Origin: Dehalococcoidia bacterium
Lineage (GTDB): Bacteria; Chloroflexota; Dehalococcoidia; Lucifugimonadales; UBA3495
Direction of reading: 5' to 3'
Length of the DNA: 64,000 bases
Assembly: GCA_965115955.1 (NCBI GenBank)
Contig: OZ220473.1
Coordinates: 1,301,463 to 1,365,462 of the forward strand
In this document: positions 5,814 to 36,352 of the stretch, piece after piece
Numbering within the stretch: the first letter of the stretch is position 1
Layout: each line of letters opens with the position of its first letter
Notes under the pieces: generated by a model
Database searches by the model: none
Told to the model about the DNA's origin: nothing
Seen by the model: only the letters and a program-made list of their open reading frames with translations
Position numbers and translations under genes: made by a program

Positions 5814-6644
5814 ATGAAACGATGCGCCCTGTTCATTCTGCTGCTGACGGCCGTTGCGGGAACCATGTCATGCTTTATCGGCGGGTCAGCGCCGGAAGGC
5901 CCGGCGGCGCTTATTCCCGATGGCGCGCATTCCGTGGTGCTGGCCGATGTCAGCCAGGCCGCGCTCAACCGCACCGACCTGCCCCCAAGCCTTGAACGCC
6001 GCGCGTCGAACCTGGACGACTACGGCGATGTTCGCCAGCAGGCGGCAGTTTCGCTGGCATCAGGCGAGGTGACGATTACCAGGGGCGACTTTGCTTTCGA
6101 CGACATCAGAGAAGCCCTGGGCGAGGACGGTTACGACGAGACAGAGTACCGGGGATACAGTTTTTGGGAGTCGTCCGGCGGCAGCCGGGTCACAGCCCTG
6201 CTGGACGACGACGGTTTTCTCATCGATGGGGGCCCGGACGCCGTGGCCGAGGTGCTGCGAAACCGCAAGCGCGATTCCGGGCTGCTGTGGAACGACGACG
6301 AAGGGGAATTGAACCGGGCCATGGATCTGGCCGGCGAGGGGCTGGTTACGCTGGCCTCCAGGCATTGCGGTCTGGACGATAACCGGGGCTGCAGCGCCGT
6401 CGCCTGGGCTTTCTCTCGAGATGAGGAGCGCCGCACCGTTATCGAGGGCGCCGCTGCAATCTTGTTCAGAAGCGTCCCTGAGGCCAACTCGGCGATGCCG
6501 ATAATCGAGCAGGCCATCGACGCCCACCCGATTATGACGCTGACGGAAATTGGAATGACCGGCGCCACCGTTATTCTGAAGACGGATATTGACCGCGACC
6601 AGTTCTCCAGCCTGGAATTGCCGGTCAGCCTGAGGCGGCAGTAA
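5814..6644 (+). CDS. Predicted lipoprotein, unknown function
   Basis: ATG at 5814 follows AGGAG. Signal peptide plus lipobox-like 'MKRCALFILLLTAVAGTMSC'. Confidence 0.6.
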   Translation: MKRCALFILLLTAVAGTMSCFIGGSAPEGPAALIPDGAHSVVLADVSQAALNRTDLPPSLERRASNLDDYGDVRQQAAVSLASGEVTITRGDFAFDDIREALGEDGYDETEYRGYSFWESSGGSRVTALLDDDGFLIDGGPDAVAEVLRNRKRDSGLLWNDDEGELNRAMDLAGEGLVTLASRHCGLDDNRGCSAVAWAFSRDEERRTVIEGAAAILFRSVPEANSAMPIIEQAIDAHPIMTLTEIGMTGATVILKTDIDRDQFSSLELPVSLRRQ

Positions 6645-6701
6645 AGAGCGGGGCCGCCCGAACTGCCGGGACGCCCCGCAACTGTCTCCCATCGACGGCG
6701 A

Positions 6702-6723
6702 GGCCCGCTCGCGCAAGCGGGCC
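6702..6723. terminator. GC-rich hairpin between convergent genes (no clear U-tract)
   Basis: GGCCCGCT / AGCGGGCC 8-bp stem with a 6-nt loop. Confidence 0.3.
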
Positions 6724-6769
6724 GGTATCAGCGCCGTCTGTTTCCGCTGGCCAGGCTGCCCAGGCGATT

Positions 6770-7807
6770 CTACAGGGGCAGAGACACTACCTGGCGGGTC
6801 TGGGAGCTGCGGGTTACCGCCTCGGTGAACTCCATGTAGTGTACGCCCACCTCGAAGGGTGTGCGGGTGATGCGCTCCCGGCCGCGGATGGCGTTGCAGA
6901 ACTCTTCTTCGACACGCCAGCGGGCCTGGCTTTCCGGCGGGTTGGGGATTTCCTCCATGGAGCTGTCGCCGCGCCGCCCGCCGTATACGTTCAAGGCGGA
7001 GTCGACGCGCAGGGTGCCCTCGCTGCCGTAGATCCAGACCTCGCTGCCGGGGCCGAAGCCGGTAATTGCGCTGAAGCGCATGTTGGCCTGGGCGCCGCTG
7101 GACAGGTCGGCCAGAATGTCAACGTGGTCGGGGATGGTCACGGGCACGAGGCTCCCGTCTTCGTCGCGGCGCTGCCGGACGTTCACCCTGGTGTTGGCCA
7201 TGACGCGGGTGGCGGGGCCGACCCAGCGAATCATGGCCTCGTACCAGATGCCCATGTTCAGGATGTTGTAACCGCTCAGGTCGCGATCGTTGCGCCAGTG
7301 CATCGGGCCGTTTGTGTCGGCGAACCCCGGCGTCAGCGACTGAAGGGACACCGCCAGCGGGTCGCCAACGTAGCCCTCGGCAATCTTCCGGATAAGCAGG
7401 TTGTCCACCCGGAAGGTCAGGGGCGATGGGACAATCTGGGCCGCCAGGCCGGGGCGCGCCCGCGACGCCTCCAGCATCTCCCGCGCCTCGGCGGCCGTCG
7501 CCGCCATCCGCGCTTCGGTGAGCACGTGCTTGCCTGCTTCCAGCGCGGCGATGGTCAGGGTGCGGTGCATATAGGGCCAGGTGCCGATGCACACGGCGTT
7601 GATGGAATCGTCCTCCAGCAGTTCCTGCCAACTGTCGTACACCGTGGGGATATTGAACTGGTCGGCCACTGCCCGCCCCGACTCGCGGGAGCGGTTAGCC
7701 ACCGCTACGATCTCCACGCCGTCGACCTGGCGGAAACCGGGAATGTGCCGGTCGCGGGTGTTGCGTCCCGCGCCGATAAGCCCGATCCGGATACCTTCAT
7801 TCGCCAT
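6770..7807 (-). CDS. Gfo/Idh/MocA family oxidoreductase
   Basis: N-terminal Rossmann 'IRIGLIGAGRNTRDRHIPGF' and typical family layout. Paralog of 8422-9483. Confidence 0.85.
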   Translation of the reverse strand: MANEGIRIGLIGAGRNTRDRHIPGFRQVDGVEIVAVANRSRESGRAVADQFNIPTVYDSWQELLEDDSINAVCIGTWPYMHRTLTIAALEAGKHVLTEARMAATAAEAREMLEASRARPGLAAQIVPSPLTFRVDNLLIRKIAEGYVGDPLAVSLQSLTPGFADTNGPMHWRNDRDLSGYNILNMGIWYEAMIRWVGPATRVMANTRVNVRQRRDEDGSLVPVTIPDHVDILADLSSGAQANMRFSAITGFGPGSEVWIYGSEGTLRVDSALNVYGGRRGDSSMEEIPNPPESQARWRVEEEFCNAIRGRERITRTPFEVGVHYMEFTEAVTRSSQTRQVVSLPL

Positions 7808-7859
7808 AATGCCACTCTCCCGTATTATGATTTATTGACGCTTGCAACGCCTTCCTCTC

Positions 7860-8273
7860 TTAACCCTGCCCGCGCGCGGCGCCAGTGCATATGGGCCTAT
7901 TTCGACGACCTCGATGTTCCTTAAGCCTGCCCGCGCGCGGCGCCAGTTCCTCGGCCACCGGGTCGACCACCAGCAGGAATTCCTGGAGCGCGTTGGCGCC
8001 GATTAGAGGGTCGGTGTCATCATCGCCGAATATGACGCGCATGGGACTCTCGGAGCCGTTGATGACCAGCATAGCCAGCCCGACGCTGCGGTCAACGACG
8101 CCGCCGTCGGCCTGCTCGAAGGGAAGGACAAAACGCTTTGCTATGCCGAGCCGCTCCAGCATACTGCGGGGGAACATCGAGTAGGACGCGCCGGTATCCA
8201 CCAGAGCATCCACCGTCTCCATGCGCTCGCCGTCGGCGCTCCACACCCCGACGGGCCAGGCGAACTCCCCCAT
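7860..8273 (-). CDS. Retropepsin-like (clan AA) aspartyl protease
   Basis: 'ALVDTGASYSMFP' D-T-G-A active-site motif in a 137-aa protein. Confidence 0.7.
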   Translation of the reverse strand: MGEFAWPVGVWSADGERMETVDALVDTGASYSMFPRSMLERLGIAKRFVLPFEQADGGVVDRSVGLAMLVINGSESPMRVIFGDDDTDPLIGANALQEFLLVVDPVAEELAPRAGRLKEHRGRRNRPICTGAARGQG

Positions 8274-9622: not shown

Positions 9623-10144
9623 GTGGGATTTCCGGCGGCCTTGTTTGCTCCGTTTCAAGCCTTCCTGAACGCTCTGTTCTCGGCGCGGGTGCGAGTGGAG
9701 GGCGACAGCATGACGCCGACGCTGGAGCATGGGCAGTCGGTGCTGGCGGTGCGGCCCGTATTCCCGTGGAACCGCCTGCAACGGGGCGATGTGGTGGTGC
9801 TGGCGCCGCCCGGTCCAACGCCCGGCCTGCCGGAGGGAACGTGGTTCATCAAACGCCTGGCCGGGATGCCCGACGAGGAAATCGTGCTGGAAGAAGGGCG
9901 CCTTTACGCCGACGACCTGCTGCTGGCGGAGCTTCCCGCATCGGACAGCCGACGGTCGGGACATTCCGGCGGCGAAAGGCGGCGCGAGTGGTGGAACGGC
10001 CCCGACGAGTACTTCGTTTTGGGCGACAACCCGGCCGACAGCCGCGACAGCCGGGCCTTTGGCCCCGTGCCGTCCAGCCGCATCATCGGGCGGGTCTGGC
10101 TTATAGTCTGGCCCCCCGGCGCGTGGGGCAAAGCGCGTGGTTGA
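9623..10144 (+). CDS. lepB: Signal peptidase I
   Basis: 'GDSMTPTL' (catalytic Ser box), 'FIKRLAGMPDEEI' (Lys box) and 'YFVLGDNPADSRDSRAFGPV'. GTG start. Confidence 0.85.
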   Translation: MGFPAALFAPFQAFLNALFSARVRVEGDSMTPTLEHGQSVLAVRPVFPWNRLQRGDVVVLAPPGPTPGLPEGTWFIKRLAGMPDEEIVLEEGRLYADDLLLAELPASDSRRSGHSGGERRREWWNGPDEYFVLGDNPADSRDSRAFGPVPSSRIIGRVWLIVWPPGAWGKARG

Positions 10145-10258
10145 CCTGGGCTTGATCTACGATGTCCACTGGCCCCCCGGCGCGTGGGGCAAAGCGCCCT
10201 TCGAGTTGCCCCGCCACAGGGGGTTGGAGCTGGCCCCCCGGCGCGTGGGGCAAAGTGC
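10108..10258 (+). CRISPR. Orphan CRISPR-like mini-array: three 29-nt repeats and two 32-nt spacers, with no cas genes in the window
   Basis: CTGGCCCCCCGGCGCGTGGGGCAAAGCGC at 10108-10136 and 10169-10197. A one-mismatch copy (..AAAGTGC) lies at 10230-10258. The spacers (10137-10168 and 10198-10229) are unrelated to each other. The repeat has a CCCC...GGGG palindromic core plus an 8-nt tail. The first repeat lies inside the lepB 3' end. Confidence 0.4.
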
Positions 10259-10333
10259 GCCAGGGTGTTTAACGCAGAGGCAAAATGTAATATCATAGAT
10301 TGTTGTATCTTTTATTCGCCTGACTTGTGAGAG

Positions 10334-12157
10334 TTGTTCTTGACTGATTCGAGTTTCCCGCCTGGAGCGCTGATCCGCGACAATCGCTCCATGGTGGGCA
10401 GGGTCGTCGCGGGCAGCGGGAGCGCGGAATTCGACGGTAAGACTGTAGACCTTGTAACAGTCGACTTCTGGGGCGAAAAGCAAAGGAGGCCGGCAGACTG
10501 GCTTACCTTGCTGGAGCGAAACAGCCCAGAAGCCCTTCTGTATGACCGGCCGGCGGAGCTGGAGCCATGGGCCGGAGAAGCGCCTCTGAAGCTGGTTGCG
10601 CTGGCCCTGTATGCCAGCGGGGGAAAGGGTAAGGTCGCCAGCATCCGGCAAAAACTGGATGGGCGTGTCCCCGGGATACACTGGGAAGGCTGGTGGAAGA
10701 AGGCCCTGCCGCAGATGAGGGAGCTGCCGGAACACTTCGGCATTGCCAGGGTTGGCAAGGACAGCGAATACAGCCTTCTTACTAGCGTTGATGCCGTTCC
10801 CAGCGCAAGTCAGTTGAAACCGCCCAAAACAGCGAAGAAAAAAGGCGCAGATTCTGCCGATTGGAGAAGATGGCTGGAGTCGGGTGCTCCAGTTCAACCC
10901 CCGGGACGATTCCCGGCAAGGCAAGTGGCCGACTCCTTTCCCGTCTGGTCGGCTAAATGGTCGGATAAGGCGGTCAATGATGCCCTTTTCCAATTCATGC
11001 TGGCCGCAGAGGAATTCCTGTCTTCCGGCAACGCATCCGCCCTGGCCGCTGAGGGCTGGCTGCGGGCCGTGGCTCAGGCCGCTTTGCGCTGGCGCGAAAC
11101 CGGACAAGGGGATATCAGGGGCTACACTGCGGCGCGAGTCGGCGGAACGCTGGCCCGGCTGTCCAGAGCGACAGGAGACCGGACGCCGCAGGAGTTGCTG
11201 CTCCAGGCAGGAGCGCTGGCCGGCGAAGCCGATGCCTGGCGGAGGGGATTCGCAGCCGGGATGTGGGATGCCTTCGATGGCGAGGACGCTCGCGATCTGT
11301 ATATAGCGTCTTCCGCCGTTTTAGGGCGCCAGGCCCGGAGCGATCTGGCGCGGGAGCTGTTCTTGGCCGCCTTCGGCCCCGATTTTCCGGCTCAGCGCCG
11401 CTCTGGGCTGGACCGGCTGCTGGATGCGCTGCCGGCGGGCGAGCGGGAGCAGCTTCTGCGAGAGATCATCATATCCGCCCCCCCGGACGAGAGAGAAAAC
11501 GTGCTGGATTACGCGGACGGCAGCAGACACTTCGGCGGCGCAGAGCGGCAGGACTTGCGGTTGCTTGCTGCGTTAACGCTGGGTAACGCCCAGTCTGAGT
11601 TCGTTGCCGGAGTGTCCAGAGAGATGGCCGATGTTCTGACCCAGCCGGATAAATACAGCGAGCCAGTGCAGGCCGTTTTCCTGGAGGGGGCAATCAGGGC
11701 AGAGGCGGCGAATGCCAAAGCTCAACTGGAAGCCCGGAGACTGCAGCAGGTTTATGAAGAGCAAATCGAGCGGGAACGGCAGGAACAGGAGCGGCTCAAA
11801 CAGCAGGTGCGGGAGCGCAACGCAGACCTGGCTGCAAGGCGGGAAGAATCCCGCCTGGAAATTCGCTGGGATATGCTTATTGCTGTTGGCGAGGTGCTAC
11901 AGTCGGTATATAGCAGCAGCCCCCCCGAAGAGACGGTTTGTAATGTAGAGGCGGGGTTGCGCCTGGCGCTGAGGGCCGGCGCAGCCGAGACGCTGGATTC
12001 GGCGCCCGAAGGCTACGACGCCCGGCTGCATAAGGCAACGGAAGCGTTAACGGAATCCACCCCCGTAAGAGTGATTGCGCCGGGCGTTATAGTCCGCGGA
12101 GGAGCTCATGGCGACCGGGTTCTGCTCAAAGCTCACGTCACAAACGAGGTAGGTTAA
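10334..12157 (+). CDS. Large protein with a C-terminal GrpE-like nucleotide-exchange domain (coiled coil plus GrpE core). The N-terminal ~450 aa are unknown.
   Basis: The C-terminal ~150 aa form a long charged helix 'AKAQLEARRLQQVYEEQIERERQEQERLKQQVRERNADLAARREESRLEIRWDM', followed by 'VEAGLRLALR...PEGYDARLHKATEAL...VIAPGVIVRGGAHGDRVLLKAHVT'. By eye this lines up with the E. coli GrpE core. TTG start (10334 or 10340) is uncertain. The stop overlaps the next ATG (TAATG). Confidence 0.6.
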   Translation: MFLTDSSFPPGALIRDNRSMVGRVVAGSGSAEFDGKTVDLVTVDFWGEKQRRPADWLTLLERNSPEALLYDRPAELEPWAGEAPLKLVALALYASGGKGKVASIRQKLDGRVPGIHWEGWWKKALPQMRELPEHFGIARVGKDSEYSLLTSVDAVPSASQLKPPKTAKKKGADSADWRRWLESGAPVQPPGRFPARQVADSFPVWSAKWSDKAVNDALFQFMLAAEEFLSSGNASALAAEGWLRAVAQAALRWRETGQGDIRGYTAARVGGTLARLSRATGDRTPQELLLQAGALAGEADAWRRGFAAGMWDAFDGEDARDLYIASSAVLGRQARSDLARELFLAAFGPDFPAQRRSGLDRLLDALPAGEREQLLREIIISAPPDERENVLDYADGSRHFGGAERQDLRLLAALTLGNAQSEFVAGVSREMADVLTQPDKYSEPVQAVFLEGAIRAEAANAKAQLEARRLQQVYEEQIERERQEQERLKQQVRERNADLAARREESRLEIRWDMLIAVGEVLQSVYSSSPPEETVCNVEAGLRLALRAGAAETLDSAPEGYDARLHKATEALTESTPVRVIAPGVIVRGGAHGDRVLLKAHVTNEVG

Positions 12158-13869
12158 TGGAAATCGTAGGCATCGATTTTGGCACTACCAACGTGCGTAT
12201 CTCCACTTGGGAGCCTGATGCTCCTGACGCGGGTCTGCCGCAGTCGCGCCTGATTGGCAGGGGCGATACCACCGTCATGCCAGTGGTCATCGCGTTGCGG
12301 CGTCAGTCCGGAGGCGGAGTTTCTGTGGTGGTGGGCGAAGACGCCGATTCAATGGAGGATGGGCCAGACACGCTGGTCATACATAACATCAAGCGCTGGG
12401 CGCTGTCGGGCGACCCCTATGTGAAATGGCGCTTTGAGGCCACCGGAACGAAGTGGCCCGACTGGTGGAACCAGGAACTGGGATGCGTCGAGATCTGGGG
12501 GCAGCACTTCCAGCTTAAAAACCTCGTCGCTGAAATCCTCAAGGAGGCCGTCGGCCGCGCCAGGCTGCCCGAACTGTTCGAATGGCGAGCCGGCTGTCCT
12601 GTGCAGGCCGGTTACGACTACCGGGCGATGCTGACCAATGTCCTTTCGGAGATCGCCGGGCAGGGTAGATTGGAATGGGTTGTAGACGAGCCGGTGCTGT
12701 TCCTGGCGGCAGCGCAGCGCAACATTGACCCCGACTCCGGCTTCAGGCTTCAGGGCCTGTATCTCGTCTACGACCTGGGAGGGGGTTCCTTCGACTGCGC
12801 CCTGGTGGAAGTGCAGGAAACCGGAGAAATGGTCGTGTACGGCGCCGATGGAGATCCGTTGCTTGGCGGCTCCAATATTGACCGGGAACTGAAGGCCAGG
12901 CTGGGCGGGGCGGAAAACCTGTTGCGGCTGGCCAAAGAACAAGTGTCGCCGGGTAATCCCAGCGTCCCCTTTGGCGGAAGCGTCGCCCTGACGTGGGCCG
13001 ATGTTGAGGCGGAGATGAAGAGCGGCAAATTTGTTCAGAGATCGCTCATGGCCCTGCGGGACGCCTATATCAGCGCCAAGTCATTGGAGAAGCGCTACGG
13101 CGAAGAATCGGGCGACGGCCCCGGAGACATTATCCTGCATAAGGATGACGACACAGGCGAAGTTCGGTTTGTCCGCCAGCTTGGATACACGGATATGAGC
13201 CGGGAAGTAGACGGAGTAATCATGTACGGCGGCCCGACACGCTCACCTTACTTCGCCGAAAACCTGGCCCTCTGGTTCGGGGAAGCCAATGTGATGCAGG
13301 CCCGCGACTTGATTGGAGGCGTAACAGATCCGGAACTGACCGGAGTAAGCATGGGCGCCTGTTACTTCCATCAAAAGCAGCATTTCCATGAAGTTCCCAG
13401 CAGGCTCCCTTATCAGGTGACGCTGGAAAACTCCCAGACCGGAGAAAGGGTTGCATACCAGCCCCATCAGCATTTCGTAGATTCGTTCCAGCCTTCGGAG
13501 CAGTATGAATCGTCGTGGCTGCAGCAGGAGACCCACAACCCACAGAGCTACGAGCTGACTATCGCAAACCCGGATGGGGTAGTGCTGAAGCGTAAGTGCA
13601 TAGACGGCTACCTGGAGCCGGACGGCAAGCAGCCGGCTACGGGGCTGCGGCTGATCATCGACCGCCTGGGCCCGGTATGCGTGGAGAAGAAGTCGGAAGG
13701 CGTTGGCCTGCCCTGGACCAGGAAGGTCACGGTGGTGGAAAACCCGCCCTGGCAGACCGAAGAACAGCGCAAAATGCTGGAAGATCTGCGCCAGAGGCTA
13801 CGAGAGCGCGAAGAAGCCAGGCGACGACAGACTTCGGCGGCTATTGACCACGCAGACCGGGGTGCATAG
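12157..13869 (+). CDS. Divergent Hsp70/actin-fold ATPase (not canonical DnaK)
   Basis: Phosphate-1 'GIDFGTTN', phosphate-2 'DLGGGSFD' and adenosine motif 'YGGPTRSP'. The C-terminal ~170 aa are unlike the DnaK substrate-binding domain and lid. The protein ends in a charged helix 'EEQRKMLEDLRQRLREREEARRR'. Confidence 0.75.
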   Translation: MEIVGIDFGTTNVRISTWEPDAPDAGLPQSRLIGRGDTTVMPVVIALRRQSGGGVSVVVGEDADSMEDGPDTLVIHNIKRWALSGDPYVKWRFEATGTKWPDWWNQELGCVEIWGQHFQLKNLVAEILKEAVGRARLPELFEWRAGCPVQAGYDYRAMLTNVLSEIAGQGRLEWVVDEPVLFLAAAQRNIDPDSGFRLQGLYLVYDLGGGSFDCALVEVQETGEMVVYGADGDPLLGGSNIDRELKARLGGAENLLRLAKEQVSPGNPSVPFGGSVALTWADVEAEMKSGKFVQRSLMALRDAYISAKSLEKRYGEESGDGPGDIILHKDDDTGEVRFVRQLGYTDMSREVDGVIMYGGPTRSPYFAENLALWFGEANVMQARDLIGGVTDPELTGVSMGACYFHQKQHFHEVPSRLPYQVTLENSQTGERVAYQPHQHFVDSFQPSEQYESSWLQQETHNPQSYELTIANPDGVVLKRKCIDGYLEPDGKQPATGLRLIIDRLGPVCVEKKSEGVGLPWTRKVTVVENPPWQTEEQRKMLEDLRQRLREREEARRRQTSAAIDHADRGA

Positions 13870-13957: not shown

Positions 13958-14239
13958 CTACACCCGCCACAGATCTCCCGTCTGGAAGATTAGGTCGATG
14001 CGGCGGACTTCTTCGGCCGGCCAGCCGGCCATCTTCATCCAGTCCTCGAAGTGGGACTGCTCGACGGCCTCGCACTCGGTGAAGAGCTTGCCGCCCGACG
14101 TGTCGGCGTAGACTTTGAGGATGGTGGTGCGGCGGTCGGGGCGCCACTTGCTTACGCCGCCGGTATAGGCGCCCAGCTTCTCGCGAAATTGCTCCTCGGT
14201 CAGTCCCGATACAGTATGCGTGGCTAGAAACCTGGCCAT
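13958..14239 (-). CDS. Small conserved-looking protein (tentatively DUF4242/SCO4226-like)
   Basis: 93-aa ORF convergent with the Hsp70-like gene. Family assignment is by vague pattern only. Confidence 0.35.
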   Translation of the reverse strand: MARFLATHTVSGLTEEQFREKLGAYTGGVSKWRPDRRTTILKVYADTSGGKLFTECEAVEQSHFEDWMKMAGWPAEEVRRIDLIFQTGDLWRV

Positions 14240-15533: not shown

Positions 15534-15630
15534 CCGGGTCTGTCCAGCCGGGTCTGTCCAGCCGGGTCTGTCCAGCCGGGTCTGTCCAGCCGGGTCTGTC
15601 CAGCCGGGTCTGTCCAGCCGGGTCCGACAG
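15534..15630. repeat. 14-nt tandem repeat CCGGGTCTGTCCAG, six perfect copies plus one degenerate copy
   Basis: Perfect copies from 15534 to 15617, then CCGGGTCCGACAG. Intergenic, upstream of the hotdog operon. Confidence 0.9.
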
Positions 15631-17084: not shown

Positions 17085-17196
17085 ACACAACAGCCAGCGC
17101 AATGCAAACCCGGCCCCAGGGCGGCTGACATTTGGCTATCGTCCGCTTTCCCGGCCCGTGCTAAAATCTTGCCAGCCAGCTTTCGGCAGGGGGGCC

Positions 17197-18264
17197 ATGG
17201 CGACAGCAGACACGACAGGGGCTTCAAGTGCGGCCAAAATCTCGGATACCTCCGTTGAACAGACGATACGAATACGGGCTGCCGTCAATAAGTGGATTGC
17301 CGACAACCTGCCTGAACAGCGGCGTCACTTGAGCCACACTCTCCCCACCGCAGGATCCGATGGGCTGTGGCATATCGAACTGTTAGCCAGGAGAGACAAG
17401 CGGTCTTATCCCCTCGGTAAGCTTGTCGTTGGCGAAGACCAGGGCGTTTCCCTGTCCAAAGGAACGCCTGAAAGTGTGGCCGCGAATCTGGAGATGATTG
17501 TGAACCATGACCGGATACACGCTGACGCCGGCGCATCTCTTTGCGGAGACCTCTACGACTTCCGTTTTGCTGATGGTATCTCGGGGTCTGCGGAACTTGA
17601 CGATCGGTCGGTGGATTTGCTGCTTACCGACCCGCCGTACAGCATCAGCAATCCCTATACCTGCGAAAGCCAGGTGCCAAGGCGCTTGAGGAAAAACGGC
17701 ACGGATTTCATCATGCCCAAAGGACACTTCGGCCACTGGGATTATGGATTTTCCCCCGCGGAATGGACATCCCTGATCCTGCCCAAAGTGCGGGGCTGGG
17801 CGGTCATTTTCTGCGCTCAGGAGCAGATCGGAGAGTACTCCGAAATCCTCAGGGCCCAGAAGTTCGTTGCCGTGGGAACACTGGTATGGCAAAAAACAAA
17901 TCCAGTGCCTTTCAACCATGCTTACAAGCCGATCAATGCTTGGGAAGCGCTGGTAATCGGCAAGCGGTCAGGCGCCAAATTCAATGGGCATGTAGTCCAC
18001 AACGTATTTCTGTACAAGTCGCCATCCCCGCAGGAGCGCATACATTCGACTCAGAAGCCTATCGGCCTGATAGCCGAGTTCATCGAACTGTTCAGCAATC
18101 AAGGAGATTTCATCCTGGACCCCTTTGCCGGAAGCGCAACGACAGTGGCGGCCGCTATCGGATTGCAGAGACGGGTCTTGGCTTTCGAGAATGATCCTGA
18201 ATCATTTCAGGCAGCATCCAAACGTATTATCTCCAAAACGAGTCTCTTATATGAGCAACGCTGA
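17197..18264 (+). CDS. DNA methyltransferase, beta-class, DPPY type (probably N6-adenine)
   Basis: Motif IV 'LLLTDPPYSISNPY' precedes motif I 'ILDPFAGSATT'. The region is visibly lower in GC than its flanks. Confidence 0.85.
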   Translation: MATADTTGASSAAKISDTSVEQTIRIRAAVNKWIADNLPEQRRHLSHTLPTAGSDGLWHIELLARRDKRSYPLGKLVVGEDQGVSLSKGTPESVAANLEMIVNHDRIHADAGASLCGDLYDFRFADGISGSAELDDRSVDLLLTDPPYSISNPYTCESQVPRRLRKNGTDFIMPKGHFGHWDYGFSPAEWTSLILPKVRGWAVIFCAQEQIGEYSEILRAQKFVAVGTLVWQKTNPVPFNHAYKPINAWEALVIGKRSGAKFNGHVVHNVFLYKSPSPQERIHSTQKPIGLIAEFIELFSNQGDFILDPFAGSATTVAAAIGLQRRVLAFENDPESFQAASKRIISKTSLLYEQR

Positions 18265-22494: not shown

Positions 22495-22554
22495 GAAGAC
22501 CCGGCTGAAGACCCGGCTGAAGACCCGGCTGAAGACCCGGCTGAAAACCCGGGT
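22495..22554. repeat. 12-nt tandem repeat GAAGACCCGGCT, four perfect copies plus one degenerate copy
   Basis: Perfect copies span 22495-22542; the degenerate copy is at 22543-22554. Intergenic, upstream of the SDR gene. Confidence 0.9.
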
Positions 22555-25587: not shown

Positions 25588-27639
25588 ATGCAGTACGATC
25601 ACAAGAGAGCGATTGAGCTCCTCCGCATCGGCTCCGGCAAACCGGACGCCCAATTCCGGGACGGGCAGGAAGATGCTATCCGCCATATTGTGGAAGGGGG
25701 CGGCAAGCTCCTGGTCGTCCAGAGGACCGGATGGGGCAAAAGCTTCGTGTATTTCATTGCAACCAGGCTGCTGCGGGAGGGCGGCACAGGCCCGGCGCTG
25801 CTGATTTCGCCGCTGCTGTCGCTGATGCGCAACCAGATTGCGGCGGCAGAACGCATGGGCGTGCGAGCGGAAACCATCAATTCCGATAACCCCGGCAAAT
25901 GGGGTGAGGTGGAGGCGAAAGCCCGCAACAACCAGGTGGATATACTTCTCGTCTCGCCGGAACGGCTGGCAAACGACAGGTTTCGTGAAGACTTTCTACC
26001 CAATATGGCCGATCGTCTCGCGATGCTGGTAATAGACGAGGCGCATTGCATATCCGACTGGGGCCATGACTTTCGCCCTGATTATCGGCGGATTGAAACA
26101 ATCATCCGAAACCTGCCGCCCAATTTCCGGATACTGGGAACTACCGCCACCGCCAACGATCGAGTGGTGAACGACCTTGTCGAAGTGCTGGGGCCGAACA
26201 TCGAAACCCAGCGCGGCGATCTTGGTCGGCCTTCGCTCCTGCTGCAAACCATAAGGATGCCCGGCCTGGCAGAGCGGATGGCGTGGCTTGCCGAGCGGCT
26301 AAAGGATATTCCAGGGTCGGGAATAATCTACACATTGACCAAGCGGGACGCATATCAGGTAACCCGGTGGCTGAAGTCGCAGGGGCTGAACGTTGAAGCA
26401 TACACAGGAGATGTCGAAAACCGGGAAGGGCTGGAAGAAGCCTTGCAAAAGAACCAAGTTAAGGCTCTGGTTGCGACAGTGTCTTTGGGCATGGGTTACG
26501 ACAAGCCGGATTTGGCCTTTGTCATTCACTTCCAGATGCCTAAATCAGTGACCGCCTATTATCAGCAGGTAGGCCGCGCTGGGCGGGCGGTGGATGCAGC
26601 CTACGGCGTGCTGCTGAGCGGGGAGGAGGACATTGATATTAACAATTATTTTATTGATTCAGCCTTTCCAACACCGGGGGAAGTTGAGCAAGTTCTATCT
26701 GTTTTGAGAGGATCCCCTCGAGGGCTCTCTGAATTCGAAATCTTAAGTCTTACTAACCTCAAGAATGGCCGCCTTGACCGCGTCACTAAGATCCTGTCTA
26801 TGGAGTCTCCCGCTCCCCTAGTCAATCAGAGTAGAGGATATTATCCGCTATGGCATATTACTGCTGCACGATTGTCCAGCGAATTTTGGGAGCGTATCGA
26901 GCGCATAACTGTGGTACGAAGAAACGAGCAAAAACAAATGCTCGAATATATTGCCTTGAAATCGGGGCATATGGAATTTCTCATACGGGCGTTGGACGGA
27001 AACCCGGAGAATGTAACGGCGCCCAACCTAAAGCCATTGCCTGCCGGTAAAAGCCAGGAAATGATCCGGAAGGCGACTGAGTTTATCCGTATCAGTCTGT
27101 CAATCGAACCTCGCAAGTACAAAGGGAACTACCCTTGCAGCAGAGGGCAGTCTCTTTGCCTTTGGGGAGATCTGGAATTCGGAAAACTTATCCAGGACGG
27201 CAAATATAGATATAACCGCTTCTCGGACAAGCTGGTAGATGCGTCGGCGCAATTGATACGACAGCGGAACTTTCGGCCTTCGCCTGCCTGGATCACCTGT
27301 GTCCCTTCGCAAAGACGCCCAAATCTCGTCCCAGATTTCGCTCTGCGACTGGCCGAATCCCTCGACCTTCCCTTTAGCGCTGCACTGAGAAAAGTGGCTA
27401 ATCGTCCTGAACAGAAGAGTATGCCCAACGGAGTTCAGCAAAGGAAAAATGTAGAGGCGTCTCTTGAAGTAGTGTCTGCCAACCTGATGCGCGGGCCAGT
27501 CCTGCTGGTGGACGACATGGTGGATTCATGTTGGACTTTCACCATAGCTGCTTCTCTTCTGCGCAACAGCGGGTCTCCGGTGGTTTTCCCATTTGCCTTG
27601 GCCAACTCTAGACCTGGCATGAGTGATATGGATGAATAG
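25588..27639 (+). CDS. RecQ-family SF2 DNA helicase fused to a C-terminal ComF-like phosphoribosyltransferase (PRTase) domain
   Basis: Walker A 'QRTGWGKS', 'VIDEAHCISDWGHDFRPDY', 'TATA' and 'QQVGRAGR'. The C-terminus has the PRPP-binding loop 'PVLLVDDMVDSCWT'. The middle of the gene is noticeably A/T-rich. Confidence 0.8.
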   Translation: MQYDHKRAIELLRIGSGKPDAQFRDGQEDAIRHIVEGGGKLLVVQRTGWGKSFVYFIATRLLREGGTGPALLISPLLSLMRNQIAAAERMGVRAETINSDNPGKWGEVEAKARNNQVDILLVSPERLANDRFREDFLPNMADRLAMLVIDEAHCISDWGHDFRPDYRRIETIIRNLPPNFRILGTTATANDRVVNDLVEVLGPNIETQRGDLGRPSLLLQTIRMPGLAERMAWLAERLKDIPGSGIIYTLTKRDAYQVTRWLKSQGLNVEAYTGDVENREGLEEALQKNQVKALVATVSLGMGYDKPDLAFVIHFQMPKSVTAYYQQVGRAGRAVDAAYGVLLSGEEDIDINNYFIDSAFPTPGEVEQVLSVLRGSPRGLSEFEILSLTNLKNGRLDRVTKILSMESPAPLVNQSRGYYPLWHITAARLSSEFWERIERITVVRRNEQKQMLEYIALKSGHMEFLIRALDGNPENVTAPNLKPLPAGKSQEMIRKATEFIRISLSIEPRKYKGNYPCSRGQSLCLWGDLEFGKLIQDGKYRYNRFSDKLVDASAQLIRQRNFRPSPAWITCVPSQRRPNLVPDFALRLAESLDLPFSAALRKVANRPEQKSMPNGVQQRKNVEASLEVVSANLMRGPVLLVDDMVDSCWTFTIAASLLRNSGSPVVFPFALANSRPGMSDMDE

Positions 27640-28981
27640 TTCAATATCCGATAACACGAAAGCTATCCTGCTGCTGACTGCGCCGCTGATTGTTGGCAAG
27701 GGACAAGGGGCAGACAGCCCTTTGTCCCTAACGGAGTACAACAAGCTGGCTCGCAATCTTTGCGCAGCGGGGATGGAGCCGGTGAATCTGTTGCAGCCCG
27801 GCTGGGAGGAAACGCTGGCGGATTTTGACCTGAAGCGGATTGGACGGTTGCTGGAGCGCGGCTTTCTGCTTAGCCAGGCCATCAGTCGCTGGCAGGAAAG
27901 GGCCATTTGGGTGGTGAGCCGGGCGGATGACGAATATCCGCATCGCCTCAAAAAGCGGCTTGGGCGAAAGGCGCCGCCGGTGCTATATGGCTGCGGCAAT
28001 CAGGAACTGATGGAAATGGAACACCGCGGCCTTGCCGTGGTCGGCTCTCGAAACGCCGGCGAAGAACTGCTGGAGTACTCCAAAGACATCGGCGCTCTGG
28101 CATCCGAATCGGGCGTCACCATAATATCCGGCGCGGCCAGAGGCGTGGACCAGGCGGCAATGCTGGGAGCATTAAGCAAACAGGGAACAGCGATCGGCGT
28201 GCTGGCCGGTGACCTGGAAAGGGAAGCGCTGAACCCCGAACACCGCGAGATGCTGATGGAAGGGAATCTGGCCCTGATTTCCCAATACGATCCCAAGGCA
28301 GGCTTTCATGTCGGCAACGCGATGGGGCGCAACAAGCTGATTTACGCGCTGGCCAACGCAGGGCTGGTGGTGGAATCCGACAACAGCAAGGGCGGCACAT
28401 GGACCGGCGCGGCGGAGCAACTGGATAAGCTGCGTTTTGTGCCGGTTTACACCCGTTCGACGGGCGAGATTGGCGCCGGTCTGCGGGGGCTGCAGCAGAA
28501 AGGCGCAAGGCGCTGGCCTGCCCCGGAGACGCCCGATGCGCTGCGGGAGTTGCTGGCTGACGGCCCTTCTGCTGCGGCAATGGCGGCCCCGGAGCAGGCA
28601 TCTCTCATCCCGGCCTCAGAGAGCGCTGCTGGATTTTGCGAGCGCCAGTCTACAGAACATGAAACGGCGGACAGGCCGGAGCTGGAAGGCGATGTTCGGG
28701 AGGATTTGTCTCCTGCCGAAGATTTGTTCGCCAAAGTTGAGCAGCTTATAAACTCAATGTCAATGGAGGAACCCGTAAGGGATGCTGATGTCAGCGAGCG
28801 TCTGCAAATCGGGAAAAAACAGGCAAAAGACTGGCTCGATCGCCTGGTGAAAGAAGGGAAGTATCGGAAGCTCAACCGGCCGGCCCGTTATGAGAAGGTT
28901 ATCCAGCCGGGGTTCAATGGCTTACGCGCCGGCATTGACGCCCCTGCCCCAGGTGTGCGACACGAATTCCGTAATGTGTAG
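27632..28981 (+). CDS. DprA/Smf (SLOG-fold) family protein with a C-terminal winged-helix-like extension
   Basis: 'LAVVGSRNAG...IISGAARGVDQAAMLGAL...GTAIGVLAGDL...GRNKLIYALA...GGTWTGA'. The ATG overlaps the RecQ-PRTase stop by 8 nt. Confidence 0.8.
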   Translation: MNSSISDNTKAILLLTAPLIVGKGQGADSPLSLTEYNKLARNLCAAGMEPVNLLQPGWEETLADFDLKRIGRLLERGFLLSQAISRWQERAIWVVSRADDEYPHRLKKRLGRKAPPVLYGCGNQELMEMEHRGLAVVGSRNAGEELLEYSKDIGALASESGVTIISGAARGVDQAAMLGALSKQGTAIGVLAGDLEREALNPEHREMLMEGNLALISQYDPKAGFHVGNAMGRNKLIYALANAGLVVESDNSKGGTWTGAAEQLDKLRFVPVYTRSTGEIGAGLRGLQQKGARRWPAPETPDALRELLADGPSAAAMAAPEQASLIPASESAAGFCERQSTEHETADRPELEGDVREDLSPAEDLFAKVEQLINSMSMEEPVRDADVSERLQIGKKQAKDWLDRLVKEGKYRKLNRPARYEKVIQPGFNGLRAGIDAPAPGVRHEFRNV

Positions 28982-29120
28982 CGTTGCCCTGCGCGTTGAC
29001 GGCCCTGCCGCCATCCCCTAAACTGATGCTGGCTTAAACCGTTCTGTAGAGGGCTTGTCATTCTGGCCTTCCCCTCGAGCCGGCAGGGAGGCATTGCAGT
29101 GAACAAAAGGGCGCAAGCGC

Positions 29121-31211
29121 ATGGCTGAACCGAATATCCGCGGGGGCGATGTCGCTCTCTTTATCGACTGGGAAAATTTCAAGATAAGCCTTGCCGCCGG
29201 CAGCCGCTCTCCCAATCTCTCGGCGCTCAAAGAAGAGGTCTCCAACCAGGGGCGGGTGGTGGTCGCCAAGGCCTACGCCGACTGGGTGACCCGGGCCCCG
29301 GAACTCCGCGGCGCCAGCCAGTTCATCAACGACCCGCCTTCTCTCTATGCCGCAGGCATCGAGCCTGTGTTCGTTCCCACACGCATCCCCTCGACCCAGG
29401 CCTCCTCGGCCAACGGAATCCGCACCTACCGCGTCAAGAACAGCGTCGACGTCAAGATGACCGCCGACTGCATCGAGTGCGCCCACTCCTACCCGAACAT
29501 CGGCACTTTCGTGCTGGTGTCGGGCGATTCCGACTTTCTCCACGTGGTCAACGCCCTGCGCACCATGGGCAAGCAGGTGGTCATCATCGGGGTGTCGTGG
29601 AGCACGTCGCGGCGACTGGCCGACCAGGTGGACTCGCTGCTGCTCTACGACAAGGACGTAGACCCGCTGGCTCCGCAGCCGGCGGTGCTGCCGCAGCACA
29701 CGGCAAAGCAGGAAGCCCCCGCCGAAGCGCCGGAACTGGCCGAGGCGCTCAGGGCCATCGAGGAGATCATCCGGGACGAGCGGGCTGCCGGCGGACAGCC
29801 TCTGCTTACCTCTATCAAGCAGCGGATGATGCGCCGCTACCCCAGTTTCGACGAGAAGAAGCTGGGCTTTTCGGGCTTCAAGAAGCTGATGGCCCGCGCC
29901 GCCGAGGACGGCAATATCAAGCTGATCCACTCAGGCTTGGTGGACTGGGCCATTATGGCCGATGAGGAGACGCCGGAAGGCACTATTGAAGAGACCCCCG
30001 CAGGCGTGGCTTCCCGGCCCAGCCGCCGGCGGGGAAGCCGCCGACGCCCCGGCGCACAACGCGAGGGCGATGCCTCCGATGGCGAGCAGGAAACCATCGA
30101 GGCGCCCGCCGAGGAGTCGGCGCCGGTTGCGCCGGCCTTCGCCGAGATGCTGGAAGAGACCGCGGCTACCGACTTTGAGCCGCCCTGGGATACCGGGGTT
30201 GTCGATGCTTCGGAGACCATGGAGGCAGGGCTCGAAGTTTTGGATCTCTCGGAGGCGGAGCCCGGCGAGCTGGAGGCGTCCGCTCCCCTGCTCGACGCCG
30301 GCGAAGAAACCGGCGCCGTTGAAGACGACTCCGGAACCTCCGGGGAACCGGCGACCGCGTCCGATGACGCCGAGCCGGAGGACGGTTTTGGAAATGACCC
30401 GGAACTGGCCGCCGCAGCGCGGGAGGCGCTCTCGCCCCTGGCTCTGCCCGACGATCCCGGAGACGGCCGAAACCCGGACAGGATATCCGACCTCATCGTG
30501 ATGTCCGATCACCTGGAACGACGGCAGGGCGTGGAGCAAGTGTCCTTCAACTACCTGGTGTCTGAAGTCTGTTCCGCTCTGGAGCAGGGACTGGCGGCCG
30601 GCAATGAGCAGATCGCCCGGCGATGGGGCGCCGTAGTCGCGCGCGACTACGTGAGCAAGGCGCTGCGAGGCCTCTCGGAAGGGGGCTTCTTCCGTAGGGC
30701 GGCGCGCTATTGGCGCGACGAGACCAGCGGCCGCCGCCGCCAGCGTCGCACCTTCAACCTGGACCGGGAGAACGAGCTCGTCGGCCGCATCCTGACGGCA
30801 AGGCTGGGATCCGCCGCCGAGACCGCTCCTCCGGGCGGGGCTGTTCCTCCGGGCGAGGCCGCTCCTCCGGGCGAGGCCGCTCCTCCGGGCGAGGCCGCTC
30901 CTCCGGGCGAGGCCGCTCCTCCGGGCGGGGCTGTTCCTCCGGGTGAGACCGCTCTTTCGGGCGAGGCCGCTCCTCCGGAGGAATCATTGTCGGACGCTGC
31001 CACAGTTCAGCCGGCCGTGGCCGAAGAAGATCTGAGGGCAGTAGAGCAACTGGCCCTGGTGGACGATGGCTCCGCCGCGGAGCCTGAACCTGTCGCAGAA
31101 GACCCGACTGCGCCTCAGGCCAACGACGAAGATGAGGGTGAGGAGTACGACGAGCCGCAGCCTCGCACCGTCCGACGCCGTCCCTTCACCAGCCGCCTGT
31201 TGCGGAGTTGA
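29121..31211 (+). CDS. NYN (LabA-like) ribonuclease domain plus OST-HTH/LOTUS domain protein with a long acidic/Pro-rich repetitive C-terminal region
   Basis: NYN acidic motifs 'VALFIDWENF', 'NSVDVKMTADCIE' and 'FVLVSGDSDF'. LOTUS-like segment 'LTSIKQRMMRRYPSFDEKKLGFSGFKKLMARAAEDGNIKL'. Confidence 0.75.
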   Translation: MAEPNIRGGDVALFIDWENFKISLAAGSRSPNLSALKEEVSNQGRVVVAKAYADWVTRAPELRGASQFINDPPSLYAAGIEPVFVPTRIPSTQASSANGIRTYRVKNSVDVKMTADCIECAHSYPNIGTFVLVSGDSDFLHVVNALRTMGKQVVIIGVSWSTSRRLADQVDSLLLYDKDVDPLAPQPAVLPQHTAKQEAPAEAPELAEALRAIEEIIRDERAAGGQPLLTSIKQRMMRRYPSFDEKKLGFSGFKKLMARAAEDGNIKLIHSGLVDWAIMADEETPEGTIEETPAGVASRPSRRRGSRRRPGAQREGDASDGEQETIEAPAEESAPVAPAFAEMLEETAATDFEPPWDTGVVDASETMEAGLEVLDLSEAEPGELEASAPLLDAGEETGAVEDDSGTSGEPATASDDAEPEDGFGNDPELAAAAREALSPLALPDDPGDGRNPDRISDLIVMSDHLERRQGVEQVSFNYLVSEVCSALEQGLAAGNEQIARRWGAVVARDYVSKALRGLSEGGFFRRAARYWRDETSGRRRQRRTFNLDRENELVGRILTARLGSAAETAPPGGAVPPGEAAPPGEAAPPGEAAPPGEAAPPGGAVPPGETALSGEAAPPEESLSDAATVQPAVAEEDLRAVEQLALVDDGSAAEPEPVAEDPTAPQANDEDEGEEYDEPQPRTVRRRPFTSRLLRS
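30823..30980 (+). repeat. In-frame 18-nt tandem repeat (about 8 copies) encoding (A/V)PPGEA
   Basis: GCTCCTCCGGGCGAGGCC units inside the NYN-LOTUS gene. Confidence 0.85.
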
Positions 31212-36286: not shown

Positions 36287-36352
36287 TCCGCCCGGGAATC
36301 AGGATGGCGGCGGAGCGGGTCCGCCCGGGAATCAGGATGGCGGCGGAGCGGG
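36287..36352. repeat. Perfect 33-nt tandem duplication spanning the recF stop codon
   Basis: TCCGCCCGGGAATCAGGATGGCGGCGGAGCGGG at 36287-36319 and 36320-36352. Confidence 0.9.

Follow-up and report, generated by a model that had tools for sequence, protein, structure and literature searches.

A conserved operon of Dehalococcoidia pairing a GrpE-like multidomain protein with a very divergent Hsp70 ATPase

Introduction

In the usual picture, bacteria run one general DnaK-DnaJ-GrpE machine together with a few paralogues, specificity being provided by the J-proteins and GrpE itself being untargeted. Targeting mediated by the exchange factor has so far been tied to eukaryotic co-chaperones of the BAG and Hsp110 type; in BAG-1/BAG-1L an Hsp70 exchange module is fused to targeting domains, coupling the chaperone to a pathway or to DNA. 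GAP1-N2 GTPase-centred conflict systems of actinobacteria and firmicutes hold HSP70+GrpE modules, some of the Hsp70s being devoid of a peptide-binding domain (Kaur, Burroughs, Iyer and Aravind 2020, PMC7159879). All4144 of Anabaena, a canonical GrpE of 214 residues with a 67-residue extension that carries a helix-turn-helix (HTH) at the N-terminus, was demonstrated to have exchange-factor as well as DNA-binding activity and works with the housekeeping DnaK (bioRxiv 10.1101/2025.04.14.648684). Here, we analyse a two-gene operon in a 64,000-nucleotide stretch of a Dehalococcoidia bacterium genome (assembly GCA_965115955.1, contig OZ220473.1, positions 1,301,463 to 1,365,462 of the forward strand), referred to as the window. 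Gene 1 of this operon encodes a protein ending in a GrpE-like module and gene 2 an Hsp70-type ATPase. We consider it probable that the pair constitutes a dedicated Hsp70 system whose exchange factor is at the same time a targeting adaptor.

The module of gene 1 shares with GrpE (PF01025; 1DKG) an FDPxxHxA-type motif and a terminal RxxxxAxV segment, and probably also the order of long helix, helical hairpin and small C-terminal beta domain, and its gene adjoins an Hsp70 gene. In contrast to GrpE, it constitutes the last 150 residues of a 605-residue protein with three extra N-terminal domains, it has APGV in place of QKGY, and its partner is a private divergent Hsp70 and not DnaK. Gene 2 has in common with DnaK, HscA and HscC the fold of the nucleotide-binding domain (NBD), every catalytic residue and, in its model, a beta domain and then a helix following the NBD; unlike DnaK, to which it is approximately 19-27% identical, it has no full lid and carries Trp-rich insertions in the NBD. 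BAG proteins would follow the same logic as gene 1, the resemblance being at most functional: the BAG three-helix bundle is unrelated to the GrpE-like fold, and BAG proteins use a general Hsp70 whereas gene 1 appears to use a dedicated one. As in GAP1-N2 systems, a non-housekeeping Hsp70 and a GrpE are linked in a dedicated operon, but in the present pair the GrpE-like part is joined to a putative Tudor-like barrel and winged helix and the lineage is Dehalococcoidia; genes for a TRAFAC GTPase, FNIII-DnaJ, tubulin or effectors were not found among the annotated neighbours in the window and eight related loci. Gene 1, known here from its sequence and a structural model, resembles All4144 in joining a GrpE module to an HTH, whereas All4144 has neither the barrel nor the helical domain nor a dedicated Hsp70. 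None of these nearest described systems shows the architecture of gene 1 or a private Hsp70 with such a partner. Our literature search found no description of the pair, and there were no database cluster names for either of the two proteins.

Results and discussion

Organisation of the operon

A preliminary description of the window, made from the sequence alone, had reported gene 1 as a 607-residue open reading frame (ORF) opening at 10334. The plus-strand ORF is real and its start has to be corrected: the database protein identical in sequence has 605 residues and begins MTDSSF, and its homologues begin MTDSK, for which reason the start is almost certainly TTG 10340 and not TTG 10334. The stop/start overlap TAATG, also reported there, is seen in the sequence, the TAA of gene 1 (12155-12157) sharing one A with the ATG of gene 2 (12157-12159), and a GAGG motif resembling a Shine-Dalgarno sequence sits 8-11 nt 5' of this ATG. 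The A/T-rich stretch upstream and the convergent gene downstream are both present as described. A sigma-70-like match in the A/T-rich stretch occurs at chance level (1 found vs 1.1 expected in the region) and is plausible because of its position only; a terminator-like site was not found in the region upstream of gene 1. The coordinates of all features are compiled in Table 1.

Table 1. Positions of the operon, its predicted domains and further features in the window; residue numbers (aa) of gene 1 domains follow the 607-residue ORF.
Feature	Position	Strand	Description
Gene 1	10340..12157	+	605-aa GrpE-fusion protein, putative adaptor; ORF opens at 10334 (607 aa)
Gene 2	12157..13869	+	570 aa, Hsp70-like ATPase
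Promoter-like site TTAACG-16-TATCAT	10269..10296	+	A/T-rich stretch 5' of gene 1; 9/12 positions match
Coupling junction	12146..12159	+	GAGG Shine-Dalgarno-like motif 12146-12149, then TAATG
Gene 1, small beta-barrel, Tudor/SH3-like	10370..10492	+	aa 13-53; AlphaFold strands, pLDDT ~75-90
Gene 1, winged helix-turn-helix-like domain	10526..10777	+	aa 65-148; AlphaFold; invariant W79, W117, W121, F135
Gene 1, all-helical middle domain	10853..11641	+	aa 174-436; many invariant Trp and Arg residues
Gene 1, very long single helix	11660..11911	+	aa 443-526; AlphaFold; aligns with long N-terminal helix of GrpE
Gene 1, GrpE-like core	11912..12154	+	aa 527-607; hhalign, HMM tests, intermediates
Gene 2, Hsp70/actin-fold NBD	12157..13371	+	aa 1-405
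Gene 2, eight-stranded beta domain	13399..13746	+	aa 415-530, at the place where Hsp70s have the substrate-binding beta-sandwich
Gene 2, charged C-terminal helix and stop	13759..13869	+	helix aa 535-568
Convergent gene	13958..14239	-	93 aa, no Pfam match
Tandem repeat	15534-15624		14 nt x 6.5
Tandem repeat	22495-22552		12 nt x 4.8
Tandem repeat	36287-36352
Tandem repeat	60858-61100		18 nt x 13.5

Gene 2 is a very divergent Hsp70

Although it has diverged very far, gene 2 is a genuine Hsp70 and its catalytic residues are intact. The motifs GIDFGTTN, DLGGGSFD and YGGPTRSP, read in the preliminary description as the nucleotide motifs of the Hsp70/actin fold, are all present. Pfam HSP70 (PF00012) is matched with 33.8 bits (cut-off 20.6), though over aa 203-245 only, and in a phmmer search aa 3-245 and 349-376 align to the DnaK NBD 1dkg_D (E 2e-8). 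In an alignment of 35 homologues with identities of 53-78%, the residues D7, T10, T11, K79, E178, D206, G208-G210, S211, D213, G358, G359 and T361 are invariant; following the phmmer alignment and the numbering of DnaK, we take invariant positions to match DnaK D8, K70, E171, D194, T199 and D201. The NBD is followed in the AlphaFold model (pLDDT 77.8, pTM 0.75) by eight beta strands (aa 420-527) and a long helix (aa 535-568).

The distance to the known chaperone types is large. Gene 2 reaches 10-43 bits against the NCBIfam models of DnaK, HscA and PRK11678 with cut-offs of 331-1019, approximately 42 bits being obtained for the DnaK equivalog models (cut-offs 648-822), so it is not an orthologue of the DnaK, HscA or YegD type. 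That gene 2 lies far below these cut-offs makes it very unlikely that the pair is the divergent housekeeping GrpE-DnaK of its lineage. Such a role would fit the chromosomal, housekeeping context and the result of tblastn searches with E. coli J-domain, DnaK NBD and GrpE queries, which found no other J-domain, DnaK or GrpE gene in the window, that is in 64 kb of a 2.9-Mb genome. It would not fit the distribution of the family, which is confined to a subset of metagenome-assembled genomes (MAGs), gene 2 orthologues being present in at least nine GTDB species genomes, all Dehalococcoidia or 'Chloroflexi' MAGs, nor the canonical dnaK-grpE-dnaJ set that cultured Dehalococcoidia are known to carry. 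The earlier statement that no J-domain (HPD) protein lies nearby holds for the window, whereas the most distant orthologous locus, L012, does have one.

The preliminary description had further stated that gene 2 lacks a DnaK-type substrate-binding domain (SBD), lid and EEVD tail. There is indeed no full lid and no EEVD tail; the lack of an SBD is doubtful and, as a beta domain is modelled at this place, probably wrong. In a Foldseek search with the gene 2 model, full-length and lid-truncated DnaK structures rank first (E 1.8e-22, 610-640 aligned columns) and NBD-only chains rank lower (E 1.2e-18, 450 columns). The C-terminal domain appears to occupy the place of the SBD, since its position, strand count and trailing helix fit and two-domain DnaK outranks NBD-only chains. 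Comparison with a DnaK SBD profile composed of the E. coli DnaK SBD and 40 SBDs from dnaK loci detected no similarity (hhalign Prob 0.09%).

The C-terminus of gene 1 carries a GrpE-like module

Homology of the gene 1 family C-terminus to GrpE is well supported by profile comparisons. We aligned a family profile (A3, a 32-sequence alignment of the last 131 residues) to a GrpE profile of 18 sequences, comprising 17 grpE genes adjoining a canonical dnaK and E. coli GrpE, and hhalign returned Prob 92.6% and P 4.4e-7, compared with at most 0.9% for 60 column shuffles and 4.8% for the reversed profile. The alignment pairs RAGAAETLD..YDARLHKA..VRVIAPGVIVRGG..DRVLLKAHV of the gene 1 family with GrpE and thereby recovers the register that had been proposed by eye. 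Of 260 family C-termini, a GrpE hidden Markov model (HMM) matches 116 at E <= 0.01, with 4/260 for reversed and 0/260 for shuffled sequences; these alignments are collinear over HMM positions ~25-188 and always finish at the C-terminus of the protein. GrpE is also the commonest weak Pfam match among gene 1 family members, and hhalign against the single E. coli GrpE sequence gives a weak match in the expected register (Prob 2.2%). At the family level, the similarity to GrpE expected for this C-terminus is thus found by profile methods, namely hhalign and the HMM, and through intermediate sequences.

The intermediates came from an HMMER search of 1.8 billion proteins with A3, in which the module was found in 142 clusters at 50% identity, nearly all matched proteins having 550-690 residues and the module at the C-terminus. 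P0351, a stand-alone protein of 175 residues with E 3.5e-13 to the family, has the canonical QKGY motif and aligns to positions 6-154 of 165 of Pfam GrpE, and P0380, found by A3 at E 7.8e-4, passes the Pfam GrpE cut-off (30.2 bits). The core elements of the module are the helix VEAGLRLALRAG, the motif YDxxLHKA (FDPxxHxA in GrpE) and presumed terminal strands ending in DRVLLKAHV (RxxRPAxV in GrpE). Best kept among these are the counterpart of FDPxxHxA, whose His is invariant, and the C-terminal strand. An invariant Gly in VEAGL presumably falls at GrpE Gly122, the grpE280 site. The AlphaFold model of gene 1 is good up to approximately aa 500 and fades beyond, with a short helix at aa 531-548. 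The preceding helix at aa 443-526 is presumed from this model to be a dimerising coiled coil, and nucleotide-exchange activity of the module is what we infer from its sequence.

A different role for the module is conceivable, i.e. as a permanent tether or regulator docking the ATPase on the gene 1 scaffold, with the ATPase maybe behaving like actin, as a switch or polymer. In favour of this, the module has diverged strongly from GrpE and stays under the Pfam threshold, gene 2 has no detectable SBD sequence similarity and has lost most of the lid, and Hsp70-fold assemblies have been proposed in other prokaryotic systems (PMC7159879). However, conservation within the module is highest at the DnaK-contacting hallmarks of GrpE, gene 2 shows no variation at any ATPase or nucleotide-sensing residue, and the J-domain protein linked to the pair in L012 is sensible only for an Hsp70 cycle. 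We therefore regard a mere tether as unlikely and prefer an exchange factor.

Stand-alone modules of 175-180 residues with a coiled coil and a GrpE-like part (P0351, P0339) are encoded at L088 2025-2552, L089 607-1134 and L090 8001-8543. The contigs of P0351 and P0339 (15 kb, 62 kb) contain long series of short ORFs that share one strand and have no Pfam matches, and their layout looks phage- or mobile-element-like. PHROGs yielded no matches on these contigs, and because of this their viral nature is unproven; among IMG/VR viral contigs, neither the GrpE-like module nor gene 2 had any relatives. The stand-alone modules could represent small GrpE-like ancestors, or else mimics of the host module that mobile elements carry. 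P0380 (268 residues) has an odd GrpE-derived architecture, with an N-terminal hydrophobic segment and two tandem GrpE C-terminal beta-domain regions (aa 83-142 and 179-260) which match the GrpE HMM.

Three predicted N-terminal domains precede the GrpE-like module

The AlphaFold model of gene 1 (overall pLDDT 77.9) predicts a small barrel, a winged helix and a helical domain in front of the GrpE-like module. The barrel motif GxxVxHxxxGxGxV is clear in the alignment of distant gene 1 members. Pfam PF21196 (PcrA_UvrD_tudor) shows a weak match in one of 14 family members (E 6.2e-4), and a profile of the N-terminal 157 residues weakly matches the PcrA/UvrD Tudor chains 9dqs_A, 7egs_B and 6yi2_A with E 0.2-1 over profile positions 3-44. 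Tudor domains of the PcrA/UvrD, CarD and Mfd type bind the beta subunit of RNA polymerase, and binding of RNA polymerase by the gene 1 barrel is a lead suggested by this analogy. The winged-helix region weakly matches the winged helices of SelB (1lva, E 0.14). On many gene 1 homologues Pfam PF27167, 'HTH_GRAD', is precomputed and recorded per protein without a position; this Pfam entry means that part of gene 1 has already been seen by curators, and we found no description of the domain name 'GRAD' in the literature. The gene 1 protein of the window itself has no match in Pfam, NCBIfam or PADLOC.

The Trp-rich helix pointed out in the preliminary description is present. Foldseek with the gene 1 model produced generic alpha-solenoid/helical-repeat matches only (E >= 0.018), and a search with the N-terminal profile returned five fragments only and no new architectures. 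The helical middle domain is missing from the gene 1 variants of L004 (519 residues; 6442-8001) and L011 (415 residues; 6754-8001), both of which retain the barrel and the winged helix as well as the coiled coil and the C-terminal module. L004 encodes a gene 2 that is 75% identical to that of the window while its gene 1 is only 32% identical over the N-terminal 280 residues (tblastn) and 43% across the multiple alignment, the GrpE-like tail alone being close to that of the window. As gene 2 has stayed close and gene 1 has diverged, the evolutionary rates within this operon are strongly discordant.

The pair is conserved across loci with different neighbours

The preliminary description had called the operon an orphan, which is wrong. 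At E <= 0.001, gene 1 has 143 homologues (46-58% identical among 120 listed) and gene 2 has 417 matches (48-80% identical among 120 listed). We examined 15 loci besides the window (14 distinct), i.e. nine GTDB species genomes fetched through gene 2 orthologues and six metagenomic loci, one of them a duplicate, fetched through gene 1 homologues. In all 15 the pair is adjacent and the gene 1 homologue ends at the start of gene 2, with overlaps of 1, 4 or 10 nt and once a gap of 8 nt. Orthologous pairs are hence conserved as neighbours also where the surrounding genes are unrelated, the adjacency persisting down to 39-45% gene 2 identity (L010-L012) and approximately 21-30% gene 1 identity. The homologue lists of gene 1 and gene 2 are additionally linked by at least 36 identical longest-contig sizes.

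L012 (3334-8010) is the most distant orthologous locus. Its gene order is N6/N4 DNA methylase (586 residues), a 220-residue protein with J-domain and DnaJ_C, gene 1 and gene 2, methylase and J-domain gene lying on the same strand upstream of the pair; judged by its sequence, the locus is a complete triad of J-protein, exchange factor and Hsp70. The window encodes an N6_N4 DNA methylase at 17158-18264, 3.3 kb downstream of the pair.

Among close relatives the locus is syntenic, with Gfo/Idh/MocA oxidoreductases, retropepsin-like genes, an S26 signal peptidase, the pair, the 93-residue gene and MaoC-like dehydratases, whereas the neighbours at distant loci comprise NadA, Nuo subunits, a TPP enzyme, a radical-SAM enzyme, a TPR protein, an IS66 transposase and a 1703-residue DEAD+UvrD helicase. 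The neighbours being mostly housekeeping genes and the locus syntenic among close relatives, the suggestion that the pair might lie in a variable or defence island is not borne out.

This context bears on the idea that the pair is an anti-phage or conflict system in which gene 1 acts as sensor or adaptor, the ATPase drives assembly or disassembly of a response and mobile elements counter it with stand-alone modules. We assign this idea a low probability, although several observations speak for it. Gene 1 evolves much faster than gene 2, as the identities among the listed homologues show, and domains have been gained and lost in it; on some contigs there are two paralogous pairs (shared longest-contig size 2063242 for gene 1, 6748594 for gene 2); the stand-alone modules P0351 and P0339 reside on mobile-element-like contigs; a DNA methylase adjoins the pair in L012 and lies approximately 3 kb off in the window; the DEAD+UvrD helicase follows the pair in L010 and the IS66 transposase is found in L085; and HSP70+GrpE modules are known from GTPase-centred conflict systems (PMC7159879). 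On the other hand, neither protein matches any PADLOC-DB v2 family at E <= 1, an effector or toxin domain is found neither in the two proteins nor conserved alongside them, the neighbours belong mostly to core metabolism in a locus that is syntenic among relatives, IMG/VR holds no relatives and the phage-like contigs have no support from PHROGs.

A model for a targeted Hsp70 system

The GrpE homology of gene 1, the non-DnaK character of gene 2 and the co-conservation of both support what the preliminary description had proposed, a private exchange factor working with a dedicated Hsp70-like motor unlike the housekeeping set. In the model that we favour, gene 2 would act as an Hsp70-type ATPase in which the NBD is followed by a divergent, substrate-binding-like beta domain and a short helical tail, and gene 1 would be its private co-chaperone. 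The C-terminal 150 residues of gene 1, predicted to comprise a long dimerising helix and then a helical hairpin and small beta domain, would dock on the NBD of gene 2 and promote the release of ADP or hold the ATPase in a nucleotide-dependent manner, the long helix probably dimerising as in GrpE. The N-terminal 440 residues, i.e. Tudor-like barrel, winged helix and, in most lineages, helical domain, might serve as a targeting or client-selecting adaptor directing the machine to DNA, to RNA polymerase or to some other complex bound to nucleic acid. Through the stop/start overlap, translation would be coupled so that both proteins are made together and co-assemble, and the J-domain activator may act in trans, being encoded directly upstream in one distant lineage (L012). 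Gene 1 is linked to the Hsp70 genetically; interaction of the two proteins, dimerisation and a DNA or RNA-polymerase target are what we infer beyond this linkage.

Several results weigh against this reading. The gene 1 protein of the window alone reaches only P ~7e-4 against the GrpE HMM, and Pfam GrpE (PF01025) is never matched at gathering score, the best E being 0.0063 among 35 family members (cut-off 25.8 bits). Searches of Protein Data Bank (PDB) sequences with gene 1 (phmmer as well as whole-protein, C-terminal and N-terminal profiles) gave nothing significant and no GrpE, and the family C-terminus HMM found no significant match among 3067 ORFs of canonical dnaK loci, GrpE being second-best at E 0.92. 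AlphaFold leaves aa 550-607 of gene 1 unfolded (pLDDT < 50, no strands), and Foldseek finds no GrpE. For the beta domain of gene 2, the SBD likeness consists of topology and Foldseek ranking only. The assignments of Tudor and winged-helix domains are weak (E 6e-4 to 1), and the barrel motif is degenerate in the gene 1 protein of the window.

Because of the barrel and the winged helix, DNA or RNA polymerase is the most plausible target, a choice made with low confidence. One version, tentative and on balance doubtful, is that barrel and winged helix tether the Hsp70 to RNA polymerase or DNA-bound complexes for transcription- or chromosome-associated protein remodelling following the logic of BAG proteins, a kind of machine for which no bacterial description is known; the mobile stand-alone GrpE-like modules could then be inhibitors or hijackers. 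If a targeted exchange factor with a private Hsp70 is true, bacteria would also use exchange-factor-mediated targeting, and if the adaptor binds DNA or RNA polymerase, this would point to chromosomal remodelling driven by a chaperone in a lineage that is abundant in soil and sediment and uncultured. The pair moreover offers a clean two-protein system for studying how far GrpE and the Hsp70 SBD can diverge while being functional.

Further observations at the locus and in the window

The 93-residue convergent gene is 84-90% identical across all syntenic relatives, far above the pair itself, and it is missing from distant loci. We considered the signal peptidase and this gene as parts of the system and rejected both, as they are syntenic in the close clade only and do not occur at distant loci.

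Between the signal-peptidase gene and gene 1, a 29-nt unit (CTGGCCCCCCGGCGCGTGGGGCAAAG[C/T]GC) occurs in three copies at 10108, 10169 and 10230, spanning 10108-10258 with an exact spacing of 61 nt and two unrelated 32-nt spacers. The first copy encodes WPPGAWGKA, the conserved C-terminus of the S26 signal peptidase. There is no Rfam match, and there are no further copies in the window and none in related loci. A CRISPR-like reading was rejected, given the lack of an Rfam match, the coding nature of the first copy and the absence from related loci; the repeats may stem from a local duplication, serve as operator sites or represent a REP-like element.

A small retropepsin-like aspartic protease (Asp_protease_2 / gag-asp_proteas) is encoded between two Gfo/Idh/MocA genes, as one copy in the window (7860-8273, minus strand) and as three to four tandem copies in related genomes (L001 4891-6032; L084 575-3547).

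Three consecutive genes at 25588-31211 on the plus strand encode a DEAD/ResIII helicase (683 residues), an overlapping DprA/SLOG-like protein (452 residues) and an NYN-domain protein (696 residues), and may constitute a nucleic-acid-targeting or conflict module. Within the gene of the NYN-domain protein lies a tandem repeat of 18 nt x 8.9 (30818-30978). Short tandem repeats that are perfect or nearly so, most of them intergenic, are numerous in the window (examples in Table 1), a density which is unusual for a segment of a bacterial chromosome.

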